From positions 1 to 56,332 of the forward strand of contig CAYTTP010000003.1 of assembly GCA_964440955.1 (NCBI GenBank): 56,332 nt of DNA, read 5' to 3'. Under the pieces are notes generated by a model that had not been told where the DNA came from, did not search any database, and saw nothing but the letters and a program-made list of their open reading frames with translations. The stretch is from an uncultured Candidatus Saccharibacteria bacterium. Its GTDB lineage: Bacteria; Patescibacteriota; Minisyncoccia; Phycocordibacterales; WO2-35-19. A program made the translations under genes and the position numbers. Positions 416-55,061 of this stretch are shown here, one piece after another (position 1 is the first letter of the stretch; each line of letters begins with the position of its first letter).

Positions 416-443
416 TTGCTAAAAACACAAAATTCACTATAAT
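416..443 (+). promoter_or_regulatory. sigma70-like promoter (TTGCTA - 16 nt - TATAAT) upstream of the tRNA-Ser locus
   Basis: TTGCTA and TATAAT hexamers with a 16-nt spacer read directly. Confidence 0.45.
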
Positions 444-453
444 GCCATAATAA

Positions 454-586
454 GCGATATATACGGAAGTGTGGCTGAGTGGATGAAAAGCAAACTGCTT
501 TGCTTTTCATCCGGAGCAAAGCGTAGGTGGCAAATATGAAGCCACTGTTCGCAAAGCGACTTCCGTTTGAGCATCGCGATATATAC
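454..586 (+). repeat. duplicated 5' leader plus 5' part of tRNA-Ser, flanking an ~90-bp hairpin-containing insert
   Basis: 29-bp direct repeat gcgatatatacggaagtgtggctgagtgg at 454-482 and 576-604. The insert contains the hairpin atgaaaagcaaaCTGCtttgcttttcat and words shared with the tRNA-associated repeat family (ccggagcaaagcgtagg). Confidence 0.55.
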
Positions 587-673
587 GGAAGTGTGGCTGA
601 GTGGTTGAAGGCACCGGTTTCGAAAACCGGCATGCTCGAAAGGGCATCAGAGGTTCAAATCCTCTCACTTCCG
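587..673 (+). tRNA. tRNA-Ser (anticodon CGA)
   Basis: Acceptor ggaagtg/cacttcc, anticodon arm ccggt-ttcgaaa-accgg, long variable arm, T-arm agagg-ttcaaat-cctct, discriminator G; no encoded CCA. Confidence 0.85.
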
Positions 674-850
674 CAAAACAAGGAACAAAATGAGTAGCAT
701 TTTGCGACTATGTTTTTGCGAGAAAAGGAGAGATTTGAAGACCTTTTGAGCTAAAATTAATTTTAAGAAAATTTTAGCCAAAAGGTGTACTGAAACTGTA
801 AGTTTCAAATCCTCTCACTTCCGCAAAACAAGGAACAAAATGAGTAGCAT
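652..850 (+). repeat. 49-bp direct repeat (652-700 and 802-850) covering the tRNA-Ser 3' end through the ATG of the downstream gene, flanking a 101-bp insert
   Basis: ggttcaaatcctctcacttccgcaaaacaaggaacaaaatgagtagcat repeated with one mismatch. The insert carries the perfect hairpin gctaaaatt...aattttagc. Confidence 0.7.
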
Positions 851-1262
851 GTACCCCAAAACCTCCAAAAAACAAAAAATAAAAAAGATGGATACTCCGG
901 TTGGTCCGAAGGACAGTGCCGAAGTCATTTTCTTTGAAGATGCAAAAATTTTTCGTCTCTGGCTCTCGAAAAATGTCGAAAGAGAGGAGGGGATATGGGT
1001 CAGGTTTTTTAAAAAATCTTCTGGCAAGAAAACACTTACATACAAAGAAGCACTTGATGAAGCACTTTGTTTTGGTTGGATAGATAGTTTGTTGCGACGC
1101 TTTGATGACGAATCGTATATTCAAAAATTCACCCCTCGTCGAAAAAAGAGTATGTGGTCACAAGTAAACAAGGGTAAAGTTGCCGAGCTTATAAAAAAGA
1201 AGCGGATGACCAAGCATGGACTTTTTGAAATAGAGCGAGCAAAAAAAGATGGTCGGTGGTGA
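840..1262 (+). CDS. YdeI/OmpD-associated (bacteriocin-protection-like) family protein
   Basis: Motifs WL..N...EGIWVRF.KKSSGKK.LTY.EALDEALCFGWIDS...FDDESY.QKFTPRRKKS.WS typical of the YdeI/OmdA family; AAGGAA ribosome-binding site. Confidence 0.5.
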   Translation: MSSMYPKTSKKQKIKKMDTPVGPKDSAEVIFFEDAKIFRLWLSKNVEREEGIWVRFFKKSSGKKTLTYKEALDEALCFGWIDSLLRRFDDESYIQKFTPRRKKSMWSQVNKGKVAELIKKKRMTKHGLFEIERAKKDGRW

Positions 1263-1398: not shown

Positions 1399-1545
1399 CA
1401 AGCGTGAAGAAAATCTAAACTGCTTTAGATTTTTAGCTTGTGGAAGGCGCAGTGATGTTTTTGTTTGAGCGAAGCGAAAGGCAAAAACCACGAGCCGGGG
1501 TCGCGAGATTTTTCTGTCAAGAAAAATACTTGTGACCACAAGCGT
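1399..1545 (+). repeat. tRNA-associated repeat unit (family member, Ala locus)
   Basis: Begins agcgtgaagaaaatctaaaCTGCtttagatttttagcttgt (identical 42-mer also at 18239-18280). Contains gagcgaagcgaaag, ccggggtcgcgag, hairpin atttttct-gtca-agaaaaat, and ends acttgtgacc followed by a short copy of the tRNA 3' tail (ccacaagcgt). Confidence 0.6.
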
Positions 1546-6514: not shown

Positions 6515-6952
6515 ATGAATCGTCAAAATTTTAAAAAAGTTTTCACTATTGTTTTGGTACTTGCTCTTGTGGCGAGCGTCATCCTACCTCTCTTCACTTC
6601 GGCTCAAACCACTGATGATTCTAATCCACTCGTCCCTTGCGGTGGTCCTGGCCAAAAAGCTTGTGGCTATTACGACTTGTTGCGACTTGTGAACAATCTC
6701 ATTGATTGGGTGATCAAAATATCCATCCCTATTTCGGCCGGCATTTTTGCTTGGGCAGGTATTCAATATATGATGACGGGTGTTATGGACAAAAAAGCTC
6801 AAGCCAAAAAAATGCTAATGAATACCTTTTGGGGTTTTGTTTTTATTCTCTCTGCTTGGATTATAGTGTCGCTTGTGATAAATACCTTGCTCAATCCGGA
6901 GTATCGGGCTGATGTTGATGATACAATAAATCTAACCAAACCAACCAACTAA
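6515..6952 (+). CDS. TrbC/VirB2-like pilin family protein (paralog 1 of 8)
   Basis: Signal peptide, Cys pair, two hydrophobic helices AGIFAWAGIQYM...FWGFVFILSAWIIVSLV separated by a charged loop; same architecture as the downstream paralogs. Confidence 0.45.
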   Translation: MNRQNFKKVFTIVLVLALVASVILPLFTSAQTTDDSNPLVPCGGPGQKACGYYDLLRLVNNLIDWVIKISIPISAGIFAWAGIQYMMTGVMDKKAQAKKMLMNTFWGFVFILSAWIIVSLVINTLLNPEYRADVDDTINLTKPTN

Positions 6953-6954
6953 CC

Positions 6955-7371
6955 ATGAAAACATTTTTTAAAAAATATTTTTTTGTTTCGCTGATTACTT
7001 GTATTCTATCTTTGTCCTTTTTACCAAGCAGTTTATACTCTCAAGATGGTGGCAATCCTGGTGCTGGGGGTGGTAATCCGGGAGGTGGTTCCTCTTACCC
7101 AATCAAAATAGCAAACCCATTTAAACAAAGCAGTATCACCGACCTTATCACTATAATCATCAAAGAAATATTGATGCCAATAGGGGCAGTGATTGCGGTA
7201 CTTATGATCATGTATGCTGGTTTTATGTATGTTACTGCTCAAGGCAATTCAACTAAAATCACCGAAGCCACTAAAGCTCTCAAATATGCCGTCATCGGCT
7301 CAGCCATCCTTATCGGCGCTTGGACTATTTCCGAAGCTATTAGGGCGACTGTCGGTCAATTAAGGGTATAA
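6955..7371 (+). CDS. TrbC/VirB2-like pilin family protein (paralog 2, Gly-rich N-terminal region)
   Basis: Signal peptide, GGNPGAGGGNPGGG low-complexity stretch, two-helix hairpin IGAVIAVLMIMYAGFMYV...AVIGSAILIGAWTI. Confidence 0.45.
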   Translation: MKTFFKKYFFVSLITCILSLSFLPSSLYSQDGGNPGAGGGNPGGGSSYPIKIANPFKQSSITDLITIIIKEILMPIGAVIAVLMIMYAGFMYVTAQGNSTKITEATKALKYAVIGSAILIGAWTISEAIRATVGQLRV

Positions 7372-7387
7372 TTAAAACTCTAACAGG

Positions 7388-7669
7388 ATGAAAAACTTAA
7401 CCGAATTTATAACTTTTTTTACCGATATGGGGCTTAGGCTTGTACCACTATTTGCTGTCCTCGCCTTCATGTATTTTGTGTGGGGAGTAGCACGCTTCAT
7501 CAAAGCGGCGGGCAATGAAAAAGAGGTGGGGGACAGCAAAAAGATACTTATTTGGGGTGTTGTCGGCCTACTCGTGCTTACAAGTATTTGGGGTATTATT
7601 TCCTTTCTCAAAGGTGAGCTAAGATTTGGCGACAATGTTGGTATTCCTCAAATAAAATTTGAAAATTAG
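7388..7669 (+). CDS. TrbC/VirB2-like pilin family protein (paralog 3)
   Basis: FMYFVWGVARFIKAAGNEKE...ILIWGVVGLLVLTSIWGIISFLKG. Confidence 0.5.
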   Translation: MKNLTEFITFFTDMGLRLVPLFAVLAFMYFVWGVARFIKAAGNEKEVGDSKKILIWGVVGLLVLTSIWGIISFLKGELRFGDNVGIPQIKFEN

Positions 7670-7679
7670 ATGAAATAAA

Positions 7680-7949
7680 ATGAATGATTTTATTGATAAA
7701 GGTTATTCGATTATCACCAATACTCTCATCCCGCTTGGGTACTTTGTTTGCCTCTTTTACTTTGCTTGGGGTATTGCAAAGTACATCAAATCGATCGGTG
7801 ACGGCAAGGAGCAGGGCAGGCAAATAATGATTTGGGGAGTAGTTGGCCTTTTTGTAGTTACGAGTATTTGGGGTATTATTGAATTTATAAAGCTCGAAGT
7901 TGGCTTGCCTTTCGATAATTCAGAGCTCGATGCAAAAGTTTATAGGTAA
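7680..7949 (+). CDS. TrbC/VirB2-like pilin family protein (paralog 4)
   Basis: YFAWGIAKYIKSIGDGKEQGRQIMIWGVVGLFVVTSIWGIIEFIK. Confidence 0.5.
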   Translation: MNDFIDKGYSIITNTLIPLGYFVCLFYFAWGIAKYIKSIGDGKEQGRQIMIWGVVGLFVVTSIWGIIEFIKLEVGLPFDNSELDAKVYR

Positions 7950-7961
7950 AAATATAAAAAC

Positions 7962-8318
7962 ATGAAAAATAATTTTAAAAAAATAATTCCGGTTTCCCTC
8001 TTCCTTTTACCAATTTTAACAAGCGCTCAACTTGATGGGACAGACAAATTTTTTGGGAAAGCAAAGTCAATCGTAAGTGATACTTTGGTACCAGGAGCAT
8101 TTTTTGTAGCCCTCGTGTATTTCTTCTACGGTATCGCCAAATACATCAAGTCTGAAGGTGCCGGCAAAGCCGAAGGCAAAATGATCATGGTGTGGGGAGT
8201 GGTCGCTTTGTTTGTTGCTTCGTCAGTTTGGGGTTTGGTCACTCTTTTACAAAAGGAAATAGGGATAAACAGTAACCCTGGCAGTATGAAAATACCAACT
8301 TTAGAAACATATAGATAA
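7962..8318 (+). CDS. TrbC/VirB2-like pilin family protein (paralog 5)
   Basis: Signal peptide; YFFYGIAKYIKSEGAGKAEGKMIMVWGVVALFVASSVWGLVTLLQ. Confidence 0.5.
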   Translation: MKNNFKKIIPVSLFLLPILTSAQLDGTDKFFGKAKSIVSDTLVPGAFFVALVYFFYGIAKYIKSEGAGKAEGKMIMVWGVVALFVASSVWGLVTLLQKEIGINSNPGSMKIPTLETYR

Positions 8319-8323
8319 TATTT

Positions 8324-8620
8324 ATGCTTACAAACACCGAAACTTTTTTGAATCAAGCTATTACTCTTTTGACCAATAGAGTCATACCTATTGTCTTTAT
8401 CCTCGCTACGCTCTACTTCTTTTGGGGCATTGTCAAATACATCAAGTCGGAAGGTGCTGGCAAAGCTGAAGGAAAAGCCATTATGGTGTGGGGAGTAGTA
8501 GCCCTTTTTGTGATGACTAGCGTATGGGGCATCGTTCGCTTGTTGAGAGTTGATTTGCTTAGTGGGCAGGACACCAACAGTATCCAAATCCCAACCGCCA
8601 CTTACGGTACTACTCGCTAA
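8324..8620 (+). CDS. TrbC/VirB2-like pilin family protein (paralog 6)
   Basis: YFFWGIVKYIKSEGAGKAEGKAIMVWGVVALFVMTSVWGIVRLLR; near-identical core to paralog 5. Confidence 0.5.
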   Translation: MLTNTETFLNQAITLLTNRVIPIVFILATLYFFWGIVKYIKSEGAGKAEGKAIMVWGVVALFVMTSVWGIVRLLRVDLLSGQDTNSIQIPTATYGTTR

Positions 8621-8751
8621 CCACTTCCCACCTACTCCCTACTCCCTCTGTGGATTACTTTTTGCTTGCAAAGGCAAAAAATGGTAAAGTAATGGTAAAT
8701 TAAAAATGTTTATTCATTTTAATTATTATTAAAAAGTATTTGCTAAATTAA

Positions 8752-9096
8752 ATGAAAAAAGTATCTATAGCAGTAGCGATGGCTCTTTTGCCACTTTCAA
8801 CCTTTGCCCAACAGCTCGGCAATATCAGCAACTTAGTTGATAGCGCAAGCGGTATAATCAATAAGGTTATACCTATATTGTTTACACTTGCTTTGCTCGG
8901 CTTCTTTTGGGGCTTGGTCAGATTTCTTTTTGGTGGTGCTGAAGACAAGGATCAGGCAAAAAACATTATGATTTGGGGCGTAGTAGCGCTTGCGGTCATG
9001 GCTTCAGTTTGGGGATTGGTCAACTTCCTTGGTTCGGCATTTAACATCAACAAGGATGCCGCTCCTTCTGTAAACCCTCTTATTCCAAAACCTTAG
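8752..9096 (+). CDS. TrbC/VirB2-like pilin family protein (paralog 7)
   Basis: Signal peptide; FFWGLVRFLFGGAEDKDQAKNIMIWGVVALAVMASVWGLVNFLG. Confidence 0.5.
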   Translation: MKKVSIAVAMALLPLSTFAQQLGNISNLVDSASGIINKVIPILFTLALLGFFWGLVRFLFGGAEDKDQAKNIMIWGVVALAVMASVWGLVNFLGSAFNINKDAAPSVNPLIPKP

Positions 9097-9118
9097 TTGG
9101 TCTTTGGTCTACAAAACA

Positions 9119-9150
9119 AAAGAGCCGTATTGTACGGCTCTTTTGTTTTC
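9119..9150 (+). terminator. rho-independent terminator
   Basis: aaagagccgta-ttg-tacggctcttt hairpin followed by a T-run. Confidence 0.6.
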
Positions 9151-9251
9151 CCTTGAATTTTATTACCTAACATTTAGAATTAGAAATATCACCCCTAGCC
9201 CCTCTTACTTTAAGAGGGGAACAACAACTTAATTTTTAATTTTCAATCCTT

Positions 9252-9515
9252 ATGCCTGTCATCAAAAGCTTGCTCAATCAAATAGCCACACTCTTTTTGA
9301 ACCCGCTCATCATTCTTGGTTTTGTTGTTGCTACACTCTATCTTTTTTGGGGTATTGGGCAAATGATACTAAACGCCGACTCAAGCAAGCTCGACGAACA
9401 TCGGAAGGGAGTTATTTGGGGCGTTGTTGGCTTACTTATCATGTTCTCCGTTTACGGCATTCTCCGTCTTGTTATCCAAACTTTTGAGATCGAGTGTAAT
9501 TTGTATTTTTGTTAG
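9252..9515 (+). CDS. TrbC/VirB2-like pilin family protein (paralog 8)
   Basis: LYLFWGIGQMILNADSSKLDEHRKGVIWGVVGLLIMFSVYGILRLV. Confidence 0.45.
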   Translation: MPVIKSLLNQIATLFLNPLIILGFVVATLYLFWGIGQMILNADSSKLDEHRKGVIWGVVGLLIMFSVYGILRLVIQTFEIECNLYFC

Positions 9516-12300: not shown

Positions 12301-12827
12301 GCTAATTTAGGTACATATATCTAAATTGGTCGAAGGATTCTAATCATTAAGGATTGATGATTCGTTTGGCAACAAACGCAACAGATGAATTGTTATCACC
12401 AATTTTGTCTACCGGAGGTAGTAACAAAATTGAGTGTCCCGCGAAACGTAGTGGAGTGGGGCATATCCAACTTCGCCTTTCGATAAACTCAAGGCTACGC
12501 TGGATGCTCAATTTTGCAGCTACTTGCAGTAGGCAAAATTGGCACAGAATTCGGCTTATGATAATGAAGATCGAAAAATGCAAAAACCGCCCCTCAAAGG
12601 CGGTTTTTGCTTCCTCAATTTTTTCTCATCTTTTATTTTTAATCCAATTACACAAGTTTTTACGATCGTGAAAACTTGTGTAGAGAGTATTTTTTTATTT
12701 TTATTGGAAATTTCCAGAATATCCCACGAGCTTGCTGTGGGGATGAATGGAAGTAAACAACCACCAGACTTAGGTCCGGTGGTTGTTTACATATCTAAAA
12801 ATATGTATATTGAATGTGGAGGTGGTT

Positions 12828-13439
12828 ATGAAAAAAGTGATCGCGGTGTTTGTTTGGACATTCTCACTTTTTGCCCAGCAGGATAACGCTCTTGTTTGCG
12901 AAAACTATCCGATCACCGATGGTCGGACAATTGAACAGAGAGCGAAGAGTCTGATGCTGTTTAATTACAGCTCGGAATACTTTGTCAGGATCTTGAAAGA
13001 TCCAAAGAAAAAATCGTGTAGGATGAACGCAGTGGTCTTTCTTGGCTTTATTGGTGGCGACAAAGAAGCCAAATTTCTGCACGACCTTATTCATGAGAGA
13101 GGGAAGGTGGATGAGGATGAAGTGTATGTTCGGGGGCTCGCGGTGTTGGCTCTTGGCAATATGGCTCGACGTTGTGTTGTGCGAGCTACGCCATACCTAT
13201 TTAGCATCTGGAGATCGGCGATGGCGTCGGAGATCGGTCTACCAGCGCCCTATCCAGGTGTTGATCCAAACATCTATTTTGCCAATAAAGCTATATTTTC
13301 CCTAGGCAATATAGGTCTTGTTGAGATAGAAAATATACTCAACAGGTTTGAGGGGTATAATGGCGGTGTATATAGGGAAGTTACAAGGAAGGCGGTTCAG
13401 GTAAGTAAGGAAAAAAGAATGAAGGGTTGTGTTCCTTGA
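12828..13439 (+). CDS. secreted HEAT-like repeat protein (paralog A)
   Basis: ATG after GGAGGTGG; signal peptide MKKVIAVFVWTFSLFA; HEAT-like segments NAVVFLGFIGGDKEA / VRGLAVLALGNMA. Confidence 0.45.
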   Translation: MKKVIAVFVWTFSLFAQQDNALVCENYPITDGRTIEQRAKSLMLFNYSSEYFVRILKDPKKKSCRMNAVVFLGFIGGDKEAKFLHDLIHERGKVDEDEVYVRGLAVLALGNMARRCVVRATPYLFSIWRSAMASEIGLPAPYPGVDPNIYFANKAIFSLGNIGLVEIENILNRFEGYNGGVYREVTRKAVQVSKEKRMKGCVP

Positions 13440-18076: not shown

Positions 18077-18365
18077 CAATATTGTTTCGCAATATTGTTC
18101 GACCGAGCACGCAAACTGCTTTGCGTGCGTGTAGGAAGTCGAAAGCCGGAGCCATGTTGAGCGAAGCGAAACAGGCGAGGCGGGGTCGCAAGATTTTGCT
18201 AAGCAAAATACTTGTGACCGACTCCTACCGGGCGGACAAGCGTGAAGAAAATCTAAACTGCTTTAGATTTTTAGCTTGTCCGAGACGGAGCCATGTTTTT
18301 GTAGCAACAAAAACAGGCGAGTCAGGATCGTGGAAATTTTTGAGCGACGGCGATAAAATTATCCA
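18077..18365 (+). repeat. two tandem tRNA-associated repeat units (Lys locus) separated by a 19-bp copy of the tRNA-Lys 3' end
   Basis: Unit X 18077-18219 ends ...ggcggggtcgcaag-attttgc-taa-gcaaaat-acttgtgacc. Then gactcctaccgggcggaca at 18220-18238 is identical to tRNA positions 18058-18076. Unit Y starts with the 42-mer shared with 1403-1444. Both units contain caaaCTGCtttg-type hairpins. Confidence 0.65.
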
Positions 18366-18449
18366 TGATGACAATATTGCGAAGTGGTGATGATTTACGA
18401 AACTTAATATAAAACGAAGGGCACTCGATGTTCGGGTGCCCTTAGGAAT

Positions 18450-24117: not shown

Positions 24118-26832
24118 ATGACGCCATTTAACCATTTTACTACCAAAGCCAAAGAAGCCATAAAACGTGCTCACGAGCTCGTTATTGAACGAGGCCAAAA
24201 CCACGTCGGACCACTCCAGCTTTTGACTGCTCTCATCTTGCAGGAGGAAAGTATGGTTGCCTCTATTTTGGATCGCCTGGAGGTTGATACCATCCTTCTC
24301 ACCGATTCTCTTTTTGATGCGATGGAGGGCGCGATTGTTGGCAATACTTCTACTCCTTCATATCAAATTTATTTGACGCCAGAGCTTGCGCATATTATCG
24401 AGCATTCTTCTAAGGTGGCTTCTTCGATGAACGATGAATTTGTCTCGACCGAGCACCTCTTTATTGCTTGTCTAGAAGTGCCAAGTCAGGCGCGCGACAT
24501 TCTTTCCAAATTCAAAATCGAAAAAGACAAAGTGATGTTTTTGATCCAAGAAATAAAAGAAGGGAGAGTCAACGAACCAAAACAGCCGCAAAAAAACAAA
24601 ACTCTGGTCAAATATACTCGCTCGCTCACCAAGCTTGCCAAAGAAAACAAGCTTGACCCGGTGATTGGTCGCGATGAGGAAATTTCCCGAATCATTCAAA
24701 TACTTTCACGTAGGACAAAAAACAATCCAATCCTCATCGGTGAGGCTGGGGTAGGCAAAACTGCTATCGCTGAAGGTCTTGCTATGCGCATGGCAAACGG
24801 TAATGTGCCTGAATCATTGAAGGACAAAGAAATAGTTTCCCTAGATTTGGGGTTGCTTGTCGCGGGTACCAAGTTTCGTGGTGAGTTTGAAGAACGTCTA
24901 AAAAATATAATCAAAGACATTGAAAAGTCAGAGGGCAAGATTATTTTGTTTATCGATGAAATCCACACTATCGTTGGTGCCGGTAGTGCTGAAGGTTCGC
25001 TCGATGCCTCCAATATGCTGAAGCCTCCACTTGCAAGAGGTGAGCTAAGGGCGATTGGCGCGACCACTATCAAGGAATATCAAAAACATATCGAAAAGGA
25101 CCCGGCCCTTACTCGTCGCTTTCAACCGGTGTATGTTTCCGAACCTTCAGTTGATGATGCGATCACTATTTTGCGTGGACTCAAAGAAAAGTACGAGCTC
25201 TATCACGGTGTCCATATAACTGATGATGCTATCAAGTCGGCTGTCAATCTTTCTTCTCGATATATTGCTGACAGGTTTTTGCCGGACAAAGCAGTTGACC
25301 TCATCGACGAAGCTGCTTCTCACCTCAAAATATCGTTGGAAAATATGCCACCTATTTTGCAAGAAACTAATTCTAAAATAGTAAAGCTTGAAATTGAGCG
25401 CGAAGCTTTGAAAAAAGAAGCAGAAAACAAAAATAGCAAAGCCAAAGCCCGCCTCCAAGAAATTGAAAAAGAGGTAGCTGATCTTAAGGAAAAGACCGGA
25501 GAGATAGATTTGAAATGGAAAAACGAAAAGGAGACTGTTGGTGAAATAAAGCGAATCAAAAAAGAGCTTGAATCTGCTCGCCTTGAAGCTGAGGCTGCTG
25601 AAGCACGGGTGGATTTGGGTCGAGCCGCTGAAGTACGCTACGGTAAGATACCAAGCTTAGAAAAGGACCTCGATACCAACGTCAAAAAACTCAAAAAACT
25701 CCAAAGCTCTCGTCGTATTTTGAAAGAGGAAATAACTGAAAATGATATTGCCAATATTGTAGCCAAATGGACGGGCATCCCAGTTTCTAGAATGCTTGAA
25801 GAAGAGGCTGAAAAACTTTCTCGAATGGAAGAAAATTTGAAAAAGAGAATCGTCGGTCAAGATGAAGCCGTCCAAAAAATTTCTGACACGATCAAACGCT
25901 CTCGTGCTGGTATTTCTGATCCAAATCGTCCGATCGGCTCCTTCATCTTTTTGGGTCCAACCGGAGTGGGAAAGACAGAGCTTACCAAAGCACTTGCCGA
26001 ATTTATGTTCAACGACGAGAAGGCGCTCATCCGTGTTGATATGTCCGAATTTATGGAAAAACACTCGGTTTCCAAGCTTATTGGCGCACCTCCTGGCTAT
26101 GTTGGTTTTGACGAAGGGGGTGGTATCACAGAGATGGTGCGTCACCGGCCGTATTCGATAGTTTTGTTCGACGAAATCGAGAAGGCTCACCCTGAAGTGT
26201 TTAACGTGCTCCTTCAAGTGCTCGACAATGGCCGACTTACCGACTCAAAGGGTCGCACTGTCAACTTCAAAAACACGATCATTATTATGACTTCAAATAT
26301 TGGTGCTCAATATATCGATAAGATGGAAAGGATGGGCTTTGGTGAAAATAGGAGTGATGAAAAAAATTATAATGATGTTAAAGACAGGGTGCTTGAAGCA
26401 ACCAAAGACTATTTCCGTCCGGAGTTTTTGAACCGCATTGACGACATTATTGTCTTTGATGTTTTGCCGATTGAAGCGATTCGCGATATCGTCCGCATTC
26501 AAGTTGATTTGGTCAAGGAGCGATTGGCTCAAAAAGAAATTTCTCTCGAGCTTTCTTCTGAAGCTTATGAATATCTTGCGAAAGAAGGTTACAATCCACA
26601 GTATGGTGCTCGCCCACTCAAGCGTGTAATCCAAAATAAGATTTTAAACAAAGTTGCTTCTCTCATTATAAGCAAGGGGATCATGAAAGGTGGCACAGTT
26701 TCTATTTCTGTCAAAAAATCAACCAATGCTTCAGGACCTGATGAACTTGTCTTTGATATCAAAAAAGGCCGTCGGGGTTCAATCATCGAAGCCTCTCTTC
26801 TCGACGACACCCCAAAAGAAACCGTGGTGTAA
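24118..26832 (+). CDS. clpB: ATP-dependent chaperone ClpB
   Basis: Two AAA+ modules ([15 protein letters not shown]; [16 protein letters not shown]), long middle coiled-coil, 904 aa. Confidence 0.9.
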
Positions 26833-26904
26833 AAATGGAAAGGCGTTCACTAAAAGTGAACGTCGATATAAAGTACTTATAATTCCCTAGAACACCACTT
26901 ATGA

Positions 26905-27090
26905 GCACGTGAGAGAAAGATGAACGAACATTGGTGGTGTCCTAAGCCCGAAAGTGGCGAGGGTAAGGCCGCTTGAGATCCAAGTCGGACTACCAGCATA
27001 CCCCCAAGATCTTCTGGTTTACTCTAAAGAGAGTATTCCGCTCCATCGTGTGACGATGAAGGCTGTTTTTCGACGTCTCTCACAGGTCCA
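26905..27090 (+). ncRNA. candidate retron non-coding RNA (msr-msd-like) upstream of the RT
   Basis: 8-bp inverted repeats gtgagaga (26909-26916) and tctctcac (27076-27083) bracket roughly 160 nt of GC-rich structured sequence containing the hairpins acaccac/gtggtgt and catcg-tgtga-cgatg. Matches the a1/a2 retron architecture; not verified. Confidence 0.3.
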
Positions 27091-27135
27091 AGCCGGACTG
27101 TTTTGATTGTAGCATGTTTTTATATATAAGTTTAG

Positions 27136-28056
27136 TTGTATAAATCAAATAAAATAGGTTATCCTCTGTTCGGAGGCCTTGTGGATAAACCTGCATTTGA
27201 AAGGTATTTTCTGAGAGATGTAAATCATCAGAGTGGTAGGGTGAAAAATCGAGAAATTTTTGCTCCAAACGATTCAATGCGTGAGGTGCAAGAGGGTATA
27301 GTGGCCAAACTTCGGTCTTTGGAGATTGAGATGCCGAGCGCGACTGGTGGTGTCAGGAATGGTTCGCCAGTCAATAACGTCCTCAAACATTGGTCACCTT
27401 ACAATAAGAGTGCGAGATACTTTTTTCTGCTTGATCTAGCATCTGCTTACAAGAATGTCCTTGTGAGCGATATGTTAGTTGAACTGAAGAGGGTGTGGCC
27501 ACATGATTGCGACGAGAAGTTTGTTCAGAGTGTTATGAATCACTGCTTGATACCGGGTGAGGGTTTGGCAACTGGAGGTAACGCCTCGCCAGATATTTTC
27601 AACCTATGTATGGAGATTTCGATTGATCGGCAAATACGCTCGTATGCCGAATACAACGATCTCACCTACACTCGTTATCTCGATGATCTGACTTTCTCAT
27701 CTCCTTTTCCGATAGGTAAGAGGAAGAGGAATACGATCATCAAGATTCTCACTGAAGCTGGTTGTGTCGTTAACCATCAAAAGTCTCAGGTGCTTGATAT
27801 CGAAAAGCATCATGTGGAAATAAATGGTATCGGCTTGCGTCGTAGCGGACACTTCTTCATGCCTAGTCGGGTCTTGGATGAGTTAAAAAACTTGCTCTAT
27901 CGGGCAACTAGAGGGGAGTCCATTTCCGATTCTCTCATTCAAGGCAAGATGGGCGGGTTCATCTATCTTAGGAGAAAAGGCTTGCTTGCTCTGACCGAGA
28001 GAGAACGTAATATCCTTCGACGGTACGAGCAATATCTGCCGTTGCGCCGGGGTTAA
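27136..28056 (+). CDS. reverse transcriptase, retron-type (RT domains 1-7 with YTRYLDD)
   Basis: RT motifs REIFAPNDSMREVQEGI, SATGGVRNGSPVNNVLKH (NAxxH-like), FLLDLASAYKNV, GLATGGNASPDIFN (QGxxxSP-like), YTRYLDDLTF (retron-like YTRYADD), VEINGIGL (VTG-like). The likelier start is GTG at 27181 after GGAGG; the ORF track begins at TTG 27136. Confidence 0.75.
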   Translation: MYKSNKIGYPLFGGLVDKPAFERYFLRDVNHQSGRVKNREIFAPNDSMREVQEGIVAKLRSLEIEMPSATGGVRNGSPVNNVLKHWSPYNKSARYFFLLDLASAYKNVLVSDMLVELKRVWPHDCDEKFVQSVMNHCLIPGEGLATGGNASPDIFNLCMEISIDRQIRSYAEYNDLTYTRYLDDLTFSSPFPIGKRKRNTIIKILTEAGCVVNHQKSQVLDIEKHHVEINGIGLRRSGHFFMPSRVLDELKNLLYRATRGESISDSLIQGKMGGFIYLRRKGLLALTERERNILRRYEQYLPLRRG

Positions 28057-28130
28057 ATCCTCGGCGCTCTGTTTTTAATAGTGTGTAAAAATTTTGAAAT
28101 ATCTGGTATTGTGTGCGGAGGAGGTGAACT

Positions 28131-28535
28131 ATGTCCAGTATCTCGAATAGAGAAATGACATTTGTTGTAGCTGTTCTGTACTCTTTGCCCGAAAAGTGGC
28201 GAGGGGTTGGCCGTTCTTTCTCGTTTGAGGATGTGCAAGATAGGCTACATCTTGCTTGGCATAGACTCTATCAAGAAGGATTGCTTGGGGAGTTTGGTGA
28301 ATCGTTTTCTTTTGACGCTCTTTGTGGCTCAGACAGTCTTGGGCAAGCACTTCGCACAGCTGCGGTAGATGGGCTCATAAGGATCGGTGGCTCTGATATG
28401 GCTTATCATGTTGATGTCCTGAAGCCTGACCAAATTGATCGTATGTTAGAGTCGTGCGTAATAGACCGAAGTGCCGTGACTACTGCTGTCAAACGTCTCG
28501 AAGCTATTCTCGAAGAGAAACCCTCCCCGGCTTAG
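28131..28535 (+). CDS. hypothetical small acidic protein downstream of the RT (candidate retron accessory/effector)
   Basis: 134-aa ORF with strong GGAGGAGGTG ribosome-binding site, 75 nt after the RT stop; no recognisable family. Confidence 0.45.
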   Translation: MSSISNREMTFVVAVLYSLPEKWRGVGRSFSFEDVQDRLHLAWHRLYQEGLLGEFGESFSFDALCGSDSLGQALRTAAVDGLIRIGGSDMAYHVDVLKPDQIDRMLESCVIDRSAVTTAVKRLEAILEEKPSPA

Positions 28536-28597
28536 AGTCGGGGAGTTTGGTTTGTAATAAACTAAAAATCTGTTAAAATCTCAAAAGTAATAATATT

Positions 28598-28681
28598 GCG
28601 TCGGTGGTAGAGTGGTCAATTACAACAGACTGTAAATCTGTCGCCCATTGGGCTACGCAGGTTCGAATCCTGCCCGGCGCA
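28598..28681 (+). tRNA. tRNA-Tyr (anticodon GTA)
   Basis: Acceptor gcgtcgg/ccggcgc, anticodon arm acaga-ctgtaaa-tctgt, long variable arm cgcccattgggctac, T-arm gcagg-ttcgaat-cctgc; no encoded CCA. Confidence 0.8.
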
Positions 28682-28872
28682 CAAAATAAAACCCAGCTTC
28701 TGCTGGTGTTTTATTTTGTGCGCCGGAAGTGCAGCTTTGTGTAGCAAAGCGTAGCACGGATTCGAAAGGCGGAAGAAATTTTTTAGCAAAAAAATTTCTG
28801 AGCCGGGGTCGCGAGCGATTTTGCTTGACTGAAGCAAAATCGACTTGTGACCGAATCCTGCCCGGCGCACCA
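28682..28872 (+). repeat. tRNA-associated repeat unit (Tyr locus) ending in a copy of the tRNA-Tyr 3' end with CCA
   Basis: Long hairpin gcgcacaaaataaaacccagc/gctggtgttttattttgtgcgc, then ...gagccggggtcgcgagcg-gattttgc..gcaaaatc-gacttgtgacc followed by cgaatcctgcccggcgcaCCA (28852-28872). The gene itself reads ...ggcgcaCAA. Confidence 0.65.
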
Positions 28873-29285
28873 CTTCGCTCTGTTATCACAGAGCTTCGCG
28901 GTGCAAGCACAAAAAGATCCCCAGAGATGGTGGTATTTTTGTTATAATTAAGCGAAGTGGTCCCGCGGAGCTAAACCCAGCAAAGCTTTAGCGAAGTTGG
29001 GTAGCGGAGTGGGGCACAAATAAAATTATATGAAAAAGACGCCTTGAGAGGCGTCTGGATGAGGGTGGGGAGTCAGGCTGCCGCAGGACGCGGATTATCC
29101 TATTCTCATAGGACAGACCGCTATTTGCCTATCTCTACCCACCCTCAAGCGGTGAGGATGAAGAGAGCTTCACGCAGGGCGCTTGCGCTGGCACCTGTGT
29201 GGGGTGGGTTGCTCAATCTCCATCCTCACGCATTTACTATTATAGCAAATGTTTGATTGCCTGTCAATAAATTTCAGTGGAAAGA

Positions 29286-30584
29286 TTATTTACCAATCAG
29301 GGCTTCACTCCATTTGTAAATATTGCCCGCACCCATAAGGACGATGCAGAGAGGTTTATCTGATTTTATCGTTTCTATTTCTCGTTTTAGTTCCCCAGCA
29401 TTTTCTACTGTATTAGCTTCAGTATGTTTATTGACTGCTTCAGCAAGGGTTTGGTTCGTCACTACACCTGTGGCATTTTCCTTATTTATATATATAGGCG
29501 CAATGAAAACTTTGTCGGCAATTTTTAGCGATTCGACAAAATCGTCAAAAAACATTTTGGTTCGGAGTTCTTGATGTGGTTCGAAAACACAGACAAGGGT
29601 GTGTTCTGGGTATTCCCCCTTTAGAGCTGAAAGGGAAGCGGTGATTTCGGTTGGGTGGTGAGCATAATCCGTATAAAAAATATTTCCATCTTTTTCGTCT
29701 ACCTTTTCGAGTCTTCTCCATGTGCCTCTAAAATCTTTTAGAGCATTTTCTGATTTTTCTTTTGGGATGTTTAAACTTTCAGTTGCCGTAATAGATGCTT
29801 TGGCGTCTAAGATATTGTGCTTCCCTGGTACTAAGAGTTTTATATTCAAATCATTTTTTGTGTAATCCAAAACTTTAGCTTGAACATTTTTCAAAACTGG
29901 TTCGATGTTTGGGTGGTTGGGGTCGGTCACGATAAACCCATCTCGACCAACTTTTTGGGCTATTTCTTCAAAAGCATTTTGAATGTCGGCAAGGTCTTTG
30001 TAATAGTCGAGGTGATCAGCTTCAATATTGGTGATCACTAAAATAGAAGGGGAGAGATTTAAAAATGATCTTTTATATTCACATGCCTCGACGACCAGAT
30101 ATTTTGATTTGCCAGCGACGAAGTTTGTGTATTCTTGGGCCTTTGAATCAATCATTTTCGAACCAACAACGATAGTCGGGTCGAAGCCTGCTTCTTGGAG
30201 AATGTGGCCGATCATGGCAGTGGTCGTCGTTTTGCCGTGAGTGCCAGCTATCGCGATTGTATACATTTGCTTTGAAAGTTCTCCTAAAGCTTGAGGATAG
30301 GTGATACAAGTAAGACCTCGTTTGCGAGCCTCGATAAGCTCTGGATTTTCCTCTGTTATCGCTACGGTATAGATGACAATCTCGACATTATTACCAATAT
30401 TTTCGGGCCTTTGACCGATCATAATTTCAACTCCTATTTTTTGGAGTGCCTCGGTTATTTCTGAAGCAGAATTATCCGAGCCGGCTACCTTTTTGCCTTG
30501 CAAGACAAGCATTTTGGCGATGGCTGAAATCCCAATCCCGCCAATGCCTATAAAGTGATAGTTGTTTTTTGAAAAGATATCCAC
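29286..30584 (-). CDS. murC: UDP-N-acetylmuramate--L-alanine ligase
   Basis: FIGIGGIGISAIA, AIAGTHGKTTTTAMI, Mur ligase central and C-terminal domains. Confidence 0.9.
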   Translation of the reverse strand: MDIFSKNNYHFIGIGGIGISAIAKMLVLQGKKVAGSDNSASEITEALQKIGVEIMIGQRPENIGNNVEIVIYTVAITEENPELIEARKRGLTCITYPQALGELSKQMYTIAIAGTHGKTTTTAMIGHILQEAGFDPTIVVGSKMIDSKAQEYTNFVAGKSKYLVVEACEYKRSFLNLSPSILVITNIEADHLDYYKDLADIQNAFEEIAQKVGRDGFIVTDPNHPNIEPVLKNVQAKVLDYTKNDLNIKLLVPGKHNILDAKASITATESLNIPKEKSENALKDFRGTWRRLEKVDEKDGNIFYTDYAHHPTEITASLSALKGEYPEHTLVCVFEPHQELRTKMFFDDFVESLKIADKVFIAPIYINKENATGVVTNQTLAEAVNKHTEANTVENAGELKREIETIKSDKPLCIVLMGAGNIYKWSEALIGK

Positions 30585-41030: not shown

Positions 41031-41190
41031 CAGATTGAGCAAAGCGAAAGTGGTGTCGGAGAGGCGTAGCTTTTTGTAAAAAAGCGTTACGCGGACTTGA
41101 AACCCGATTGAGATTTTTTAGGAGTATCGCGAACTAAAAAACCAATTGGGGTACTGAGTCTGTAAGACTCAAGTCCTCTCTCCGGCACCA
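41031..41190 (+). repeat. tRNA-associated repeat unit (Leu-CAA locus, diverged) ending in a copy of the tRNA 3' end with CCA
   Basis: gagcaaagcgaaag...ctgtaagac followed by tcaagtcctctctccggcaCCA (41169-41190), copying tRNA positions 41012-41030; the gene continues ...ggcaCAG. Confidence 0.55.
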
Positions 41191-45933: not shown

Positions 45934-46398
45934 AATACGAAGTAACGAATTGATTGCGAATATATACGAATGTATCTAAGAATAAATGGAAAAGGCGGAA
46001 AATGCAAAATCGCACCTCAAACAGACCTCACCCTCGCTCCGCTCTCCTTACAGGAGCTGTACACCTTTCGCATTAGGAAATGCTCAAGGTCTTGCGAAGC
46101 TCCACGCATTCACTTCTCACCCTCTCCTAGACTTAGGAGAGGGAAAGCAAGAACAACAAACAAAAAAGGGCAAGCCCAGTCGCGTCTGACGCGGCTGGGC
46201 TTGGATTGAAAAAGTTTCAGTCCTCGTTTAGTGTCGTAGCTTATGACGAAGCTGGATAACAAACAAGAGTAAGATTGTGAGGAAGGCTAGGCCTATCCTA
46301 CCCATGCCGCTTTCGATAGACGGCAGAAGTAGGATGGAACCAAGCAGGGCCGTAACTGAAAGAGTTTTTAGCATGGAGGAACTCTGACAAATAGCATA

Positions 46399-54656: not shown

Positions 54657-54729
54657 TGGTTGCCTAAGGGGTGATGTTTCTGGTACAATGCTCTCGTTCT
54701 TTGAAATTCCAAAAATTAGATTTTTTTGC

Positions 54730-55061
54730 TCCGGGATAGCTCAGCGGTAGAGCGAGCGACTGTGTCGTGACGCAGCTTCCAAAAGAAATTTTGGTTGAAA
54801 AACGAGGTGAATTCGGGGGAACCCCAAGTGGGCAATCCCGAGCCAATCCTAAATTAAAGAAAGATATTGTTGTGTAAAAACTTTAATTAAGGCAGGTGTA
54901 GAGACTATTCCGAAAGGAAGTACTTACTCCGTATTTCGGAGTCGGGAAGCGCCTCGCTCCTAATAGCCAATTTGGTTAAAGGAGATGATATAGTCCATAC
55001 TTCTAGTAATAGAAGAGAATATGTAATCGCTTGGTCGTAGGTTCGATCCCTACTCCCGGAG
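54730..55061 (+). tRNA. tRNA-Asn (anticodon GTT) interrupted by a group I intron in the anticodon loop
   Basis: 5' exon 54730-54763: tccggga-ta-gctc-agcggta-gagc-g-agcga-ctgt. 3' exon 55024-55061: taa-tcgct-tggtc-gtagg-ttcgatc-cctac-tcccgga-g. U1:A72 and G73 fit Asn; the 5' splice site follows a U and the intron ends in G. Confidence 0.7.
54764..55023 (+). other. group I self-splicing intron (~260 nt) within tRNA-Asn
   Basis: Conserved core elements R-like GTAGAGACTA (about 54897), S-like GATATAGTCC (about 54988), P-like AATTCGGGGGAA; the internal guide GCAG can pair with the exon end CTGT (U-G at the splice site); no ORF inside. Confidence 0.6.

Follow-up and report, generated by a model that had tools for sequence, protein, structure and literature searches.

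Partial tRNA (transfer RNA) genes left behind by integrated elements have been documented (PMC9897764). The classical footprint of such integration, attachment sites attL and attR of a tyrosine-integrase element at the T-loop, is a direct repeat from T-loop to 3' end, of which the proximal copy keeps the tRNA intact and the old 3' end is displaced downstream. In this work we analysed a 56,332-nt stretch (hereafter the window; contig CAYTTP010000003.1, deposited under an uncultured Candidatus Saccharibacteria bacterium), in which the gene for tRNA-Ser(CGA) is bracketed by partial copies of both its ends. They form the outer ends of two distinct structured non-coding modules, members of a family that extends across a lineage of ultra-small bacteria, the Paceibacterota. 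Every module combines one copied tRNA end (T) with the inverted complement of that piece (T') and a conserved junction core; pairing of T with T' on the tRNA-sense strand closes the module as a self-contained domain, and a complete tRNA is left alongside. The modules share with attachment sites the T-loop-to-3'-end repeat and its polarity, but differ in that 90–170 nt lie between the repeats, no integrase is present, the core covaries, an inverted complement is included, a mirror family exists at the tRNA 5' end, and the repeats are sometimes only 4–6 nt long.

The module family is previously undescribed, being absent from Rfam and from the literature searched. At gathering score, Rfam 15, whose models cover self-cleaving ribozymes, riboswitches, tmRNA, Y RNA and group I and II introns among others, retrieved from the whole window only tRNAs and one group I intron located elsewhere, and at permissive expect values (E) no credible match was obtained at E<=5 in 380–1600, nor at E<=1 in 26800–29300. 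No description of the modules was found in publications on tRNA motifs of the candidate phyla radiation (CPR) and Parcubacteria, GIY-YIG nucleases at tRNAs, tRNA-like non-coding RNAs or partial tRNA genes; of related work, only the general article on tRNA gene fragments cited above came up.

At the tRNA-Ser(CGA) gene (plus strand, 587–674 according to ARAGORN and 587–673 according to Rfam), CCA is not encoded and the gene end reads ..CCG C AAAAC. A repeat finder identified a 5' direct repeat (454–487 = 576–609) of 34 nt with one mismatch (A483 vs T605), which contains as an exact part the 29 bp (454–482) given in the preliminary description of the locus, and a 3' direct repeat (651–700 = 801–850) of 50 nt, also with one mismatch (G653 vs T803) and exact over 804–850. 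The longest exact direct repeat found in the window at a distance of up to 300 nt was 47 nt, compared with 11.9 on average and at most 13 in 40 shuffles. With the full repeats taken into account, the two inserts measure 88 and 100 nt rather than the 93 and 101 bp first reported. The 3' repeat had been described as 49 bp including the ribosome-binding site and start codon of the downstream ydeI-like gene; the repeat stands, but the second part of that claim is doubtful. This gene probably starts elsewhere than at ATG 840 in the repeat, since the NCBI product (124 aa) begins at M17 (ATG 888), roughly where the alignment with homologues also sets in. As previously noted, the first copy of this ATG (690) opens only a tiny reading frame of 18 codons.

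Both inserts are closed on their tRNA copies in minimum-free-energy folds, and that of 465–612 is cloverleaf-like. In the 5' module, T1 stops in the D-loop just past G18G19. The hairpin noticed earlier in this insert proved to be a perfect 14-bp helix, whose centre motif AAACTGCTTT recurs beside tRNAs of the window: four exact sites were found vs 0.35 expected, all of them in tRNA-flanking modules. In the 3' module, T'b (GGAGAGATTTGAA, 727–739) forms P1 with the tRNA copy (729–736/807–814), followed by P2 (741–746/781–786, with an apical extension), the junction GUACUG (787–792) and P3 (793–797/801–805) with a GUA loop. The lone mismatch of each repeat improves pairing in the non-tRNA copy, namely A483-T510, a Watson-Crick pair in hairpin A, and A795-T803 in P3. 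After the tRNA, an imperfect palindrome centred on 692–696 sets the tRNA end and flank against their inverted complement and holds the first ATG copy. These inverted complements, present in each insert, had been overlooked, as had the conserved RNA-type structure and the distribution of the family across the lineage. The transcription start expected from the only promoter-like site (Table 1) is at about 450–454, which coincides with the left edge of the 5' repeat, and a scan of 350–900 found no terminator-like site between tRNA-Ser and the ydeI-like gene.

An older tRNA-Ser split by a segment bearing a new, complete tRNA-Ser had been proposed to explain this arrangement, and the outer pieces (454–487 and 801–824) do stand in the right order for two ends of one gene. 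However, both pieces carry the leader or flank of the locus itself, no middle part of the supposed old gene is present, and the module type of each piece occurs alone at other tRNAs. The two pieces belong to different module families and are not halves of one event, so that a split gene is unsupported and highly improbable. The other proposal, two independent insertions with long target duplications, comes close to the data, as the 5' and 3' module types are each found alone elsewhere.

The 5' modules were searched with a pattern drawn from the tRNA-Ser 5' insert and three relatives. The search yielded 20 metagenome stretches, 17 of them true members, each preceding a Ser(CGA), Leu(CAA) or Leu(UAA) tRNA; examples at tRNA-Tyr came from genome loci. 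The common unit comprises tRNA nt 1–10 (Leu) or 1–18 (Ser), a AAACUGCUUU hairpin, the motif CCGARCAAAGYGAGG and the complement of nt 1–9, which provides the closing helix. Over the family, the T pieces span nt 1–10 or 1–19 and halt at G10 or G18G19. In eight Leu-type modules both helices showed compensatory changes and tolerated G.U pairs. Some members, including those of the window and of L113 (related loci and contigs are designated L plus a number), also duplicate leader or promoter-proximal sequence.

Two further loci carry irregular copies of tRNA 5' ends. In L077 (approximately 8085–8210, minus strand), the head copy GGAGATGTGGCTGAGTGG upstream of tRNA-Ser(CGA) no longer matches the adjacent tRNA GGAGGGTTGG...; this locus was considered as an interrupted tRNA, an interpretation that was rejected when it proved to be a degenerate 5' module. 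In L030, two tandem 88-nt units lie 175 nt upstream of tRNA-Cys (3362), each combining a -10-like box with tRNA nt 1–16 and a degenerate rest.

The 3' modules were characterized in 80 Paceibacterota loci fetched around initiation factor 2 (IF-2) and GyrA loci (about 90 loci, 1.3 Mb). For 80 of 314 tRNAs, 10 nt or more of their own 3' tail recur exactly downstream, compared with 14 in the upstream control, mostly due to neighbouring paralogous tRNAs; a stricter count gave 63 modules among 341 tRNAs. The copy begins at tRNA position 56 (C56) in 24 of these 63 and usually ends 1–3 nt past the discriminator, T most often running from C56 in the T-loop through the discriminator plus C. Across the whole family, T' is usually interrupted by a hairpin with a AAACUGCUUU loop. 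Modules of the 3' type are known at Leu, Lys, Tyr, Cys, Trp, Glu, Ala, Met and Asp tRNAs, and two structural classes were distinguished.

Class A, aligned from 22 core sequences (alignment A2), is a three-way junction in which P1, formed by the T-loop complement and the T-loop copy, is followed by GAAA as a junction, the helix GNC/GNC of 3 bp, a variable hairpin reached through the internal loop GGA/GA, GGG as a further junction and a long helix starting GUCG/YGUGAC. In this alignment 94.5% of the cells are paired, falling to 35–44% when partners are slid by 1–3 columns; the covariation score is 0.669 vs about 0.1, and none of 500 shuffles reached the observed values. Compensatory changes occur in 21 of 24 pairs, one G.U pair is kept in 20 of the 22 sequences, and the ratio of G.U to A.C is about 35:4. 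Since the helices covary and G.U greatly outnumbers A.C, the constraint acts on RNA of the tRNA-sense strand or on sense-strand single-stranded DNA. The class A covariance model, R1, found 68 copies in the 1.3 Mb, 60 of them following a tRNA on the same strand at a distance of no more than 330 nt (Leu 21, Lys 17, Tyr 10, Cys 6, Trp 2, Glu 2, Ala 1, Asp 1).

Class B, to which the tRNA-Ser 3' insert and the Leu(CAA) insert of the window belong, is likewise a three-way junction, in which P1, including the T-loop copy, is joined by GAAA, P2, GUNUACUG and P3, a 5-bp hairpin that has GUA as its loop. Compensatory changes occur in 16 of 19 pairs (alignment A5), and the corresponding model, R2, found 50 copies, 42 of them beside tRNAs. 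Direct and inverted copies around hairpins are the product of quasipalindrome template switching, which the palindrome at 651–739 fits, and the modules might thus be non-functional local rearrangements, tolerated after slippage or template switching at strong hairpins. However, the invariant junction nucleotides and covarying helices are common to different tRNAs and to genomes as distant as 44–61% identity in IF-2, and independent slippage events cannot be the source of this shared conservation, which makes such an origin very unlikely.

Within the window, insert-type modules occupy five of the six plus-strand tRNAs (Table 1), and the inverted complement inside each insert varies with the tRNA, e.g., GTGG at Ala vs GTCC at Lys. 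The insert after tRNA-Ala measures 140 nt. At tRNA-Lys, a 19-nt copy of the tRNA 3' end (18221–18239) separates the two modules in series, X1 and X2. The tRNA-Tyr insert (170 nt, then an 18-nt copy from T-loop to 3' end) shows the order terminator-like hairpin hp1, T' (GTGCGCCGG ... GGATTCGAA), core, T2 (GAATCCTGCCCGGCGCAC) and CA, and that of tRNA-Leu(CAA) measures 139 nt and is followed by a 20-nt copy (T2) and CA. No insert was found at the four minus-strand tRNAs and tRNA-Trp, three of which (Glu, Leu-UAA and Trp) encode CCA.

Table 1. Positions of the elements of the tRNA-Ser locus and of the modules at other tRNAs of the window.
Feature	Position	Strand	Details
Promoter-like site TTGCTA-16 nt-TATAAT	416..443	+	10/12 matches; sole such site in 350–900
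T1 of 5' module	454..487	+	11-nt leader copy (454–464) and tRNA-Ser nt 1–23 (465–487)
Hairpin A, GGATGAAAAGCAAA-CTGC-TTTGCTTTTCATCC, with AAACUGCUUU centre	481..512	+	481–494/499–512, 14 bp, 100% paired
Single-stranded conserved motif CCGGAGCAAAGCGTAGG (family consensus CCGARCAAAGYGAGG)	511..527	+	Present in 5' modules of relatives
T' of 5' module, two pieces	541..565	+	GCCAC 541–545, complement of GTGGC 471–475; GCGACTTCCG 556–565, complement of tRNA nt 1–6; closes module on T1; T' tracks T1 in relatives
11-nt leader, second copy	576..586	+	Directly 5' of functional tRNA-Ser
Functional tRNA-Ser(CGA)	587..674	+	ARAGORN, Rfam
50-nt repeat, first copy	651..700	+	T-arm to tRNA 3' end (651–674) and 26 nt of downstream flank
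hp1 hairpin CAAAATG-AGTAG-CATTTTG	684..702	+	Centre of imperfect palindrome reaching about 739
3' module body, class B	701..800	+	R2 match 728–815, 66.5 bits, E 5e-14
T2 (50-nt repeat, second copy)	801..850	+	807–814 form P1 with T'b
Class A module after tRNA-Ala(GGC)	1400..1545	+	R1 match 1436–1544, 69.3 bits
Two class A modules in series (X1, X2) after tRNA-Lys(CTT)	18078..18377	+	R1 matches: X1 18135–18226, 86.4 bits; X2 18274–18377, 71.8 bits
Class A module after tRNA-Tyr(GTA)	28683..28870	+	R1 match 28758–28859, 82.4 bits
Class B module after tRNA-Leu(CAA)	41032..41190	+	R2 match 41090–41179, 77.6 bits

A collapsed or chimeric repeat could imitate such an arrangement, and short-read assemblers do break at the shared hairpin: in Logan assemblies of the same organism, contigs end inside it. 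Nevertheless, the same architecture assembles independently in many metagenome projects and with different assemblers, which makes misassembly unlikely. The tRNA-Ser 5' module is identical in four independent contigs of the Joint Genome Institute (JGI; L094, L095, L103 and L104), the tRNA-Ser of L108 is also bracketed, and the right junction of the tRNA-Ala insert is reproduced in three independent Logan assemblies. An assembly artefact is thus scarcely credible.

The Pfam matches of the window are chromosomal housekeeping genes, and its GyrA is 82–89% identical to Candidatus Zambryskibacteria and Paceibacterota proteins. The comparison of synteny with relatives, which had been suggested as a check, revealed empty tRNA-Ser(CGA) sites: in L007 and L090/L091 (syntenic or orthologous) the gene has no flanking copy and encodes CCA. 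L095 and L112 have only the 5' insert, their empty 3' side encoding CCA, and in L108, bracketed on both sides, the 3' insert is class A, not class B. Both tRNA-Ser genes with a 3' insert (window and L108) lack an encoded CCA. Over all tRNAs, CCA was counted after 4 of 63 functional copies, 13 of 58 distal copies and 51 of 278 tRNAs without a module. Because CCA trails the distal copy more often than the functional one, the distal copy looks like the ancestral gene end. The tRNA-Leu(UAA) gene carries no module in the window and two in L004 (GyrA 89% identical); the sequence past the last T2 of L004 (..ACCACTT plus a hairpin) resembles that downstream of the intact tRNA-Leu(UAA) of the window.

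The T-loop-to-3'-end repeat, the uneven retention of CCA and the order of T1 followed by a terminator would also suit decayed integrative elements, i.e., tyrosine-integrase elements that entered at the T-loop and lost everything but their attachment arms, with about 100–170 nt remaining between the repeats. However, neither an integrase nor an open reading frame (ORF) of at least 50 aa was found between the repeats in about 60 cases (inserts of 70–300 nt); the sole long case, L074 (7759–8072), has a GIY-YIG nuclease ORF of 87 aa, bounded by tRNA-Gly(GCC) and by 19 nt copied from the 3' end of that tRNA, in an interval lacking both the inverted complement and a class A or B core. Moreover, attachment arms need no shared cores with compensatory changes and conserved G.U pairs, nor does such an origin account for the mirror-image family at the 5' end and D-loop or for repeats as short as 4–6 nt (Lys X2, Glu). 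Decay of integrative elements therefore appears quite unlikely.

The module copies appear to be old, divergent and mostly inherited vertically, judging from the sequence comparisons. Cores at different sites of one genome share a mean identity of 0.64 (maximum 0.83), and those of different genomes 0.58–0.60, while orthologous modules of close relatives are 92–98% identical. Orthologues at the same tRNA extend across genera, as shown by Lys X2 (window, L007 and L090) and by the 5' module before Leu(UAA), present in at least six organisms.

Selfish, non-autonomous mobile DNA aimed at tRNA ends, with no role in tRNA expression, is a rather unlikely source of the modules, although several observations speak for it. 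Under this explanation, the tRNA copy would be a long, variable target-site duplication, and the hairpins and T' would serve transposition, either as hairpins in single-stranded DNA or as a guide for a transposase or reverse transcriptase acting in trans. Module presence varies among relatives, the same tRNA bears different cores in different species, and modules are stacked or nested (Lys X1 and X2, the two copies at Leu(UAA) in L004, and L047). Antisense copies occur at the 5' end of tRNA-Lys, the duplication may reach into unique flank (26 nt at tRNA-Ser), contigs break within the shared hairpin, and the GIY-YIG gene of L074 points to mobility at such sites. [quoted passage not shown]

However, near-identical copies within a genome, expected of active mobile DNA of these kinds, are lacking, the modules are tied to tRNA ends, and orthologues are kept at the same tRNA across genera. 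MITEs carry terminal inverted repeats common to all copies, whereas T and T' change with each tRNA, hence no constant transposase site is visible. The duplicated pieces, of 4–50 nt, match no known transposase: they differ both from the fixed short target-site duplication of MITEs and from the insertion of IS200/IS605 elements, including PATEs, and REPs 3' of a fixed tetra- or pentanucleotide without duplication. Off-target integration of the neo-CRISPR type does not fit better, since it involves spacer inserts of about 30–40 nt with duplications of about 28–36 nt and the conserved modules measure 88–170 nt.

Candidate carriers were also sought. Pattern scans of IMG/VR found no module copies in viral contigs (one chance match fell inside an ORF), and no autonomous transposase element with module ends was seen in the window and the 1.3 Mb of related loci. 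One relative, L007, has a Y1 (IS200-like) transposase gene (12490–13244) directly after gyrA, flanked by GCCGAGATGGGCATCTTCTCGGC palindromes; a link to the modules was rejected as these palindromes are unrelated to them. The window itself encodes a retron-type reverse transcriptase (27136–28056, plus strand; Pfam RVT_1, PADLOC RT_II-A/VI/I-B, NCBIfam retron St85 below cut-off) in a region (26860–28535) where it is preceded by 280 nt of non-coding sequence and followed, just before tRNA-Tyr, by a 134-aa ORF that belongs to no known family. A link to the modules was likewise rejected, and with it their identity as retron non-coding RNA, which adjoins its own reverse transcriptase, because about 90 related, module-bearing loci contain no homologue of this enzyme. 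Duplicated tRNA sequence also flanks the inserts of the Mauriceville and Varkud retroplasmids of Neurospora, which integrate via a hybrid tRNA-cDNA. Nevertheless, these are eukaryotic organelle plasmids with their own reverse transcriptase, and no such gene is linked to the modules.

The reading we favour, which we give an even chance, is that the modules are leader and trailer RNA domains of tRNAs that arose by insertion with duplication and serve processing. A module would arise by insertion or duplication at the D-loop, or at the T-loop and 3' end, of a tRNA gene originally encoding CCA, the distal copy T2 representing the old tRNA 3' end. Modules would then be inherited vertically for the most part, although they would at times be gained, lost or stacked or have their core replaced, and would be co-transcribed as leader, trailer or spacer domains of tRNA precursors. 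In tRNA clusters, modules lie 4–19 nt from the next tRNA and must therefore be transcribed in polycistronic precursors. The clamp formed by T and T' may keep the antisense piece from invading the real tRNA and, together with the conserved junction, may constitute an element for processing, which would either signal cleavage to RNase III, P or Z or contain a core that cleaves itself. Such an element would separate the tRNA from neighbouring RNA, which at tRNA-Ser would be the promoter-proximal leader and the ydeI-like message. A processing or catalytic role is what we infer from the anatomy of the modules. In this respect, they would be comparable to the RNase III stems of rRNA operons and the t-elements of plant mitochondria, where transcribed spacer ends pair as a helix beside a stable RNA, a plausible means of defining cleavage sites, but differ from these in that their helix uses a copied end of the tRNA itself and the junction cores are highly conserved. 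Comparison with tRNA-like structures (those of viruses, transfer-messenger RNA and t-elements) revealed neither a T-arm, the T-loop copy being paired with T'b as P1, nor a free acceptor end, as T' pairs through the discriminator and C74 (GTGCGCCGG with CCGGCGCAC). Without a T-arm or a free NCCA end, the modules are not tRNA mimics in the sense of t-elements. They were also considered as T-loop or D-loop introns, which was rejected since the tRNA would be identical with or without splicing and some copies span no more than 4–6 nt.

Several observations weigh against this reading. Processing neither requires a tRNA-specific clamp nor accounts for the matching of T' to each tRNA, and the tolerance of G.U pairs also fits hairpins in sense-strand single-stranded DNA. 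Between solitary tRNAs and their 3' modules, hp1 is often a canonical intrinsic terminator (e.g., 28683–28717), which would limit transcription of the module at such tRNAs. Class A modules also abut the 5' end of tRNA-Lys in antisense orientation (L013, 12215–12318, minus strand; L021, 11231–11465, plus strand), their first hairpin pairing with the complement of the 5' acceptor strand. Class-B-like cores exist away from tRNAs, in L024 (7170–7226) and in the window at 46036–46100 (minus strand), where a weak match (26 bits, E 0.002; ...AAAGGTGTACAGCTCCTGTAAGGAG...) lies between a terminator and topA. A pure role as tRNA trailer fits neither the antisense copies nor these cores. Finally, about 20 invariant nucleotides in a 60-nt core are more than a simple processing stem requires.

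The invariant junction nucleotides and the interchangeability of the cores make a catalytic or specific-binding role worth testing. Small self-cleaving ribozyme classes that replace one another in one genetic context (hammerhead, twister, pistol and hatchet, as well as the ribozyme of R2 elements, which resembles that of hepatitis delta virus, HDV) resemble the modules in their three-way-junction cores of 60–100 nt, in the invariant nucleotides of the junctions and in the exchange of different cores at the same position. Such ribozymes may be embedded in transcripts of stable RNAs, as R2 is with rRNA, and the same is predicted for the modules; no Rfam ribozyme matched at E<=5, and mapping the junctions by eye onto hammerhead-like or HDV-like ones gave no fit. 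Class A, class B and the 5' module could thus be new classes of functional RNA, possibly small self-cleaving ribozymes cutting at the P3|P1 boundary, before C56 of the copy, and either maturing tRNA precursors in organisms with reduced RNase sets or releasing fragments of tRNA ends. We regard this as unlikely. The fragments released would be 3' pieces from C56 and 5' pieces 1–19, which might act as spare parts or small RNAs. If true, the swappable cores and the choice of G18G19 and C56, partner positions in the tRNA elbow, as break points would be features of functional design and not scars of insertion.

If this picture of the family holds, a large share of Paceibacterota and CPR tRNA genes would bear conserved RNA domains that copy and clamp tRNA ends, with at least three junction cores held by no RNA family database, and these new families would be directly testable for self-cleavage or RNase recognition. 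They could provide a view of tRNA precursor maturation in genome-reduced bacteria, and would account in practice for partial tRNA 'pseudogenes' and for the breaking of contigs beside tRNAs in CPR assemblies. A set of about 45 different tRNAs, all accompanied by matching complements of their own, would form a clean evolutionary system for studying how a guide-like sequence stays matched to its neighbour.

Other features of the window were recorded along with the modules. The sequence CCACTTCGCTCTGTTATCACAGAGCTTCGCGGTGCAAGCAC, found after the tRNA-Tyr end copy (28868–29285, plus strand), recurs after the last copy at tRNA-Leu(UAA) in L004 and looks like a further small conserved module; the approximately 375 nt that follow it near tRNA-Tyr contain no ORF and no Rfam match. 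The ydeI-like gene (840–1262, plus strand) is C-terminally truncated (124–140 aa vs about 190) and has no PF13376 domain. Since identity to the closest relative reaches only 65%, the protein is uninformative for synteny; an exact-protein look-up found no other contig with the 140-aa form. The group I intron (RF00028, 54754–55016, 78 bits) interrupts the anticodon loop of a tRNA gene (54728–55060, plus strand; acceptor GCTCCGG.../...CCGGAGCA) that was not called by ARAGORN. Downstream of gyrA and a gene for a solute-binding protein, eight small genes similar to pilins of type IV secretion systems (6515–9515, plus strand) are conserved in relatives.

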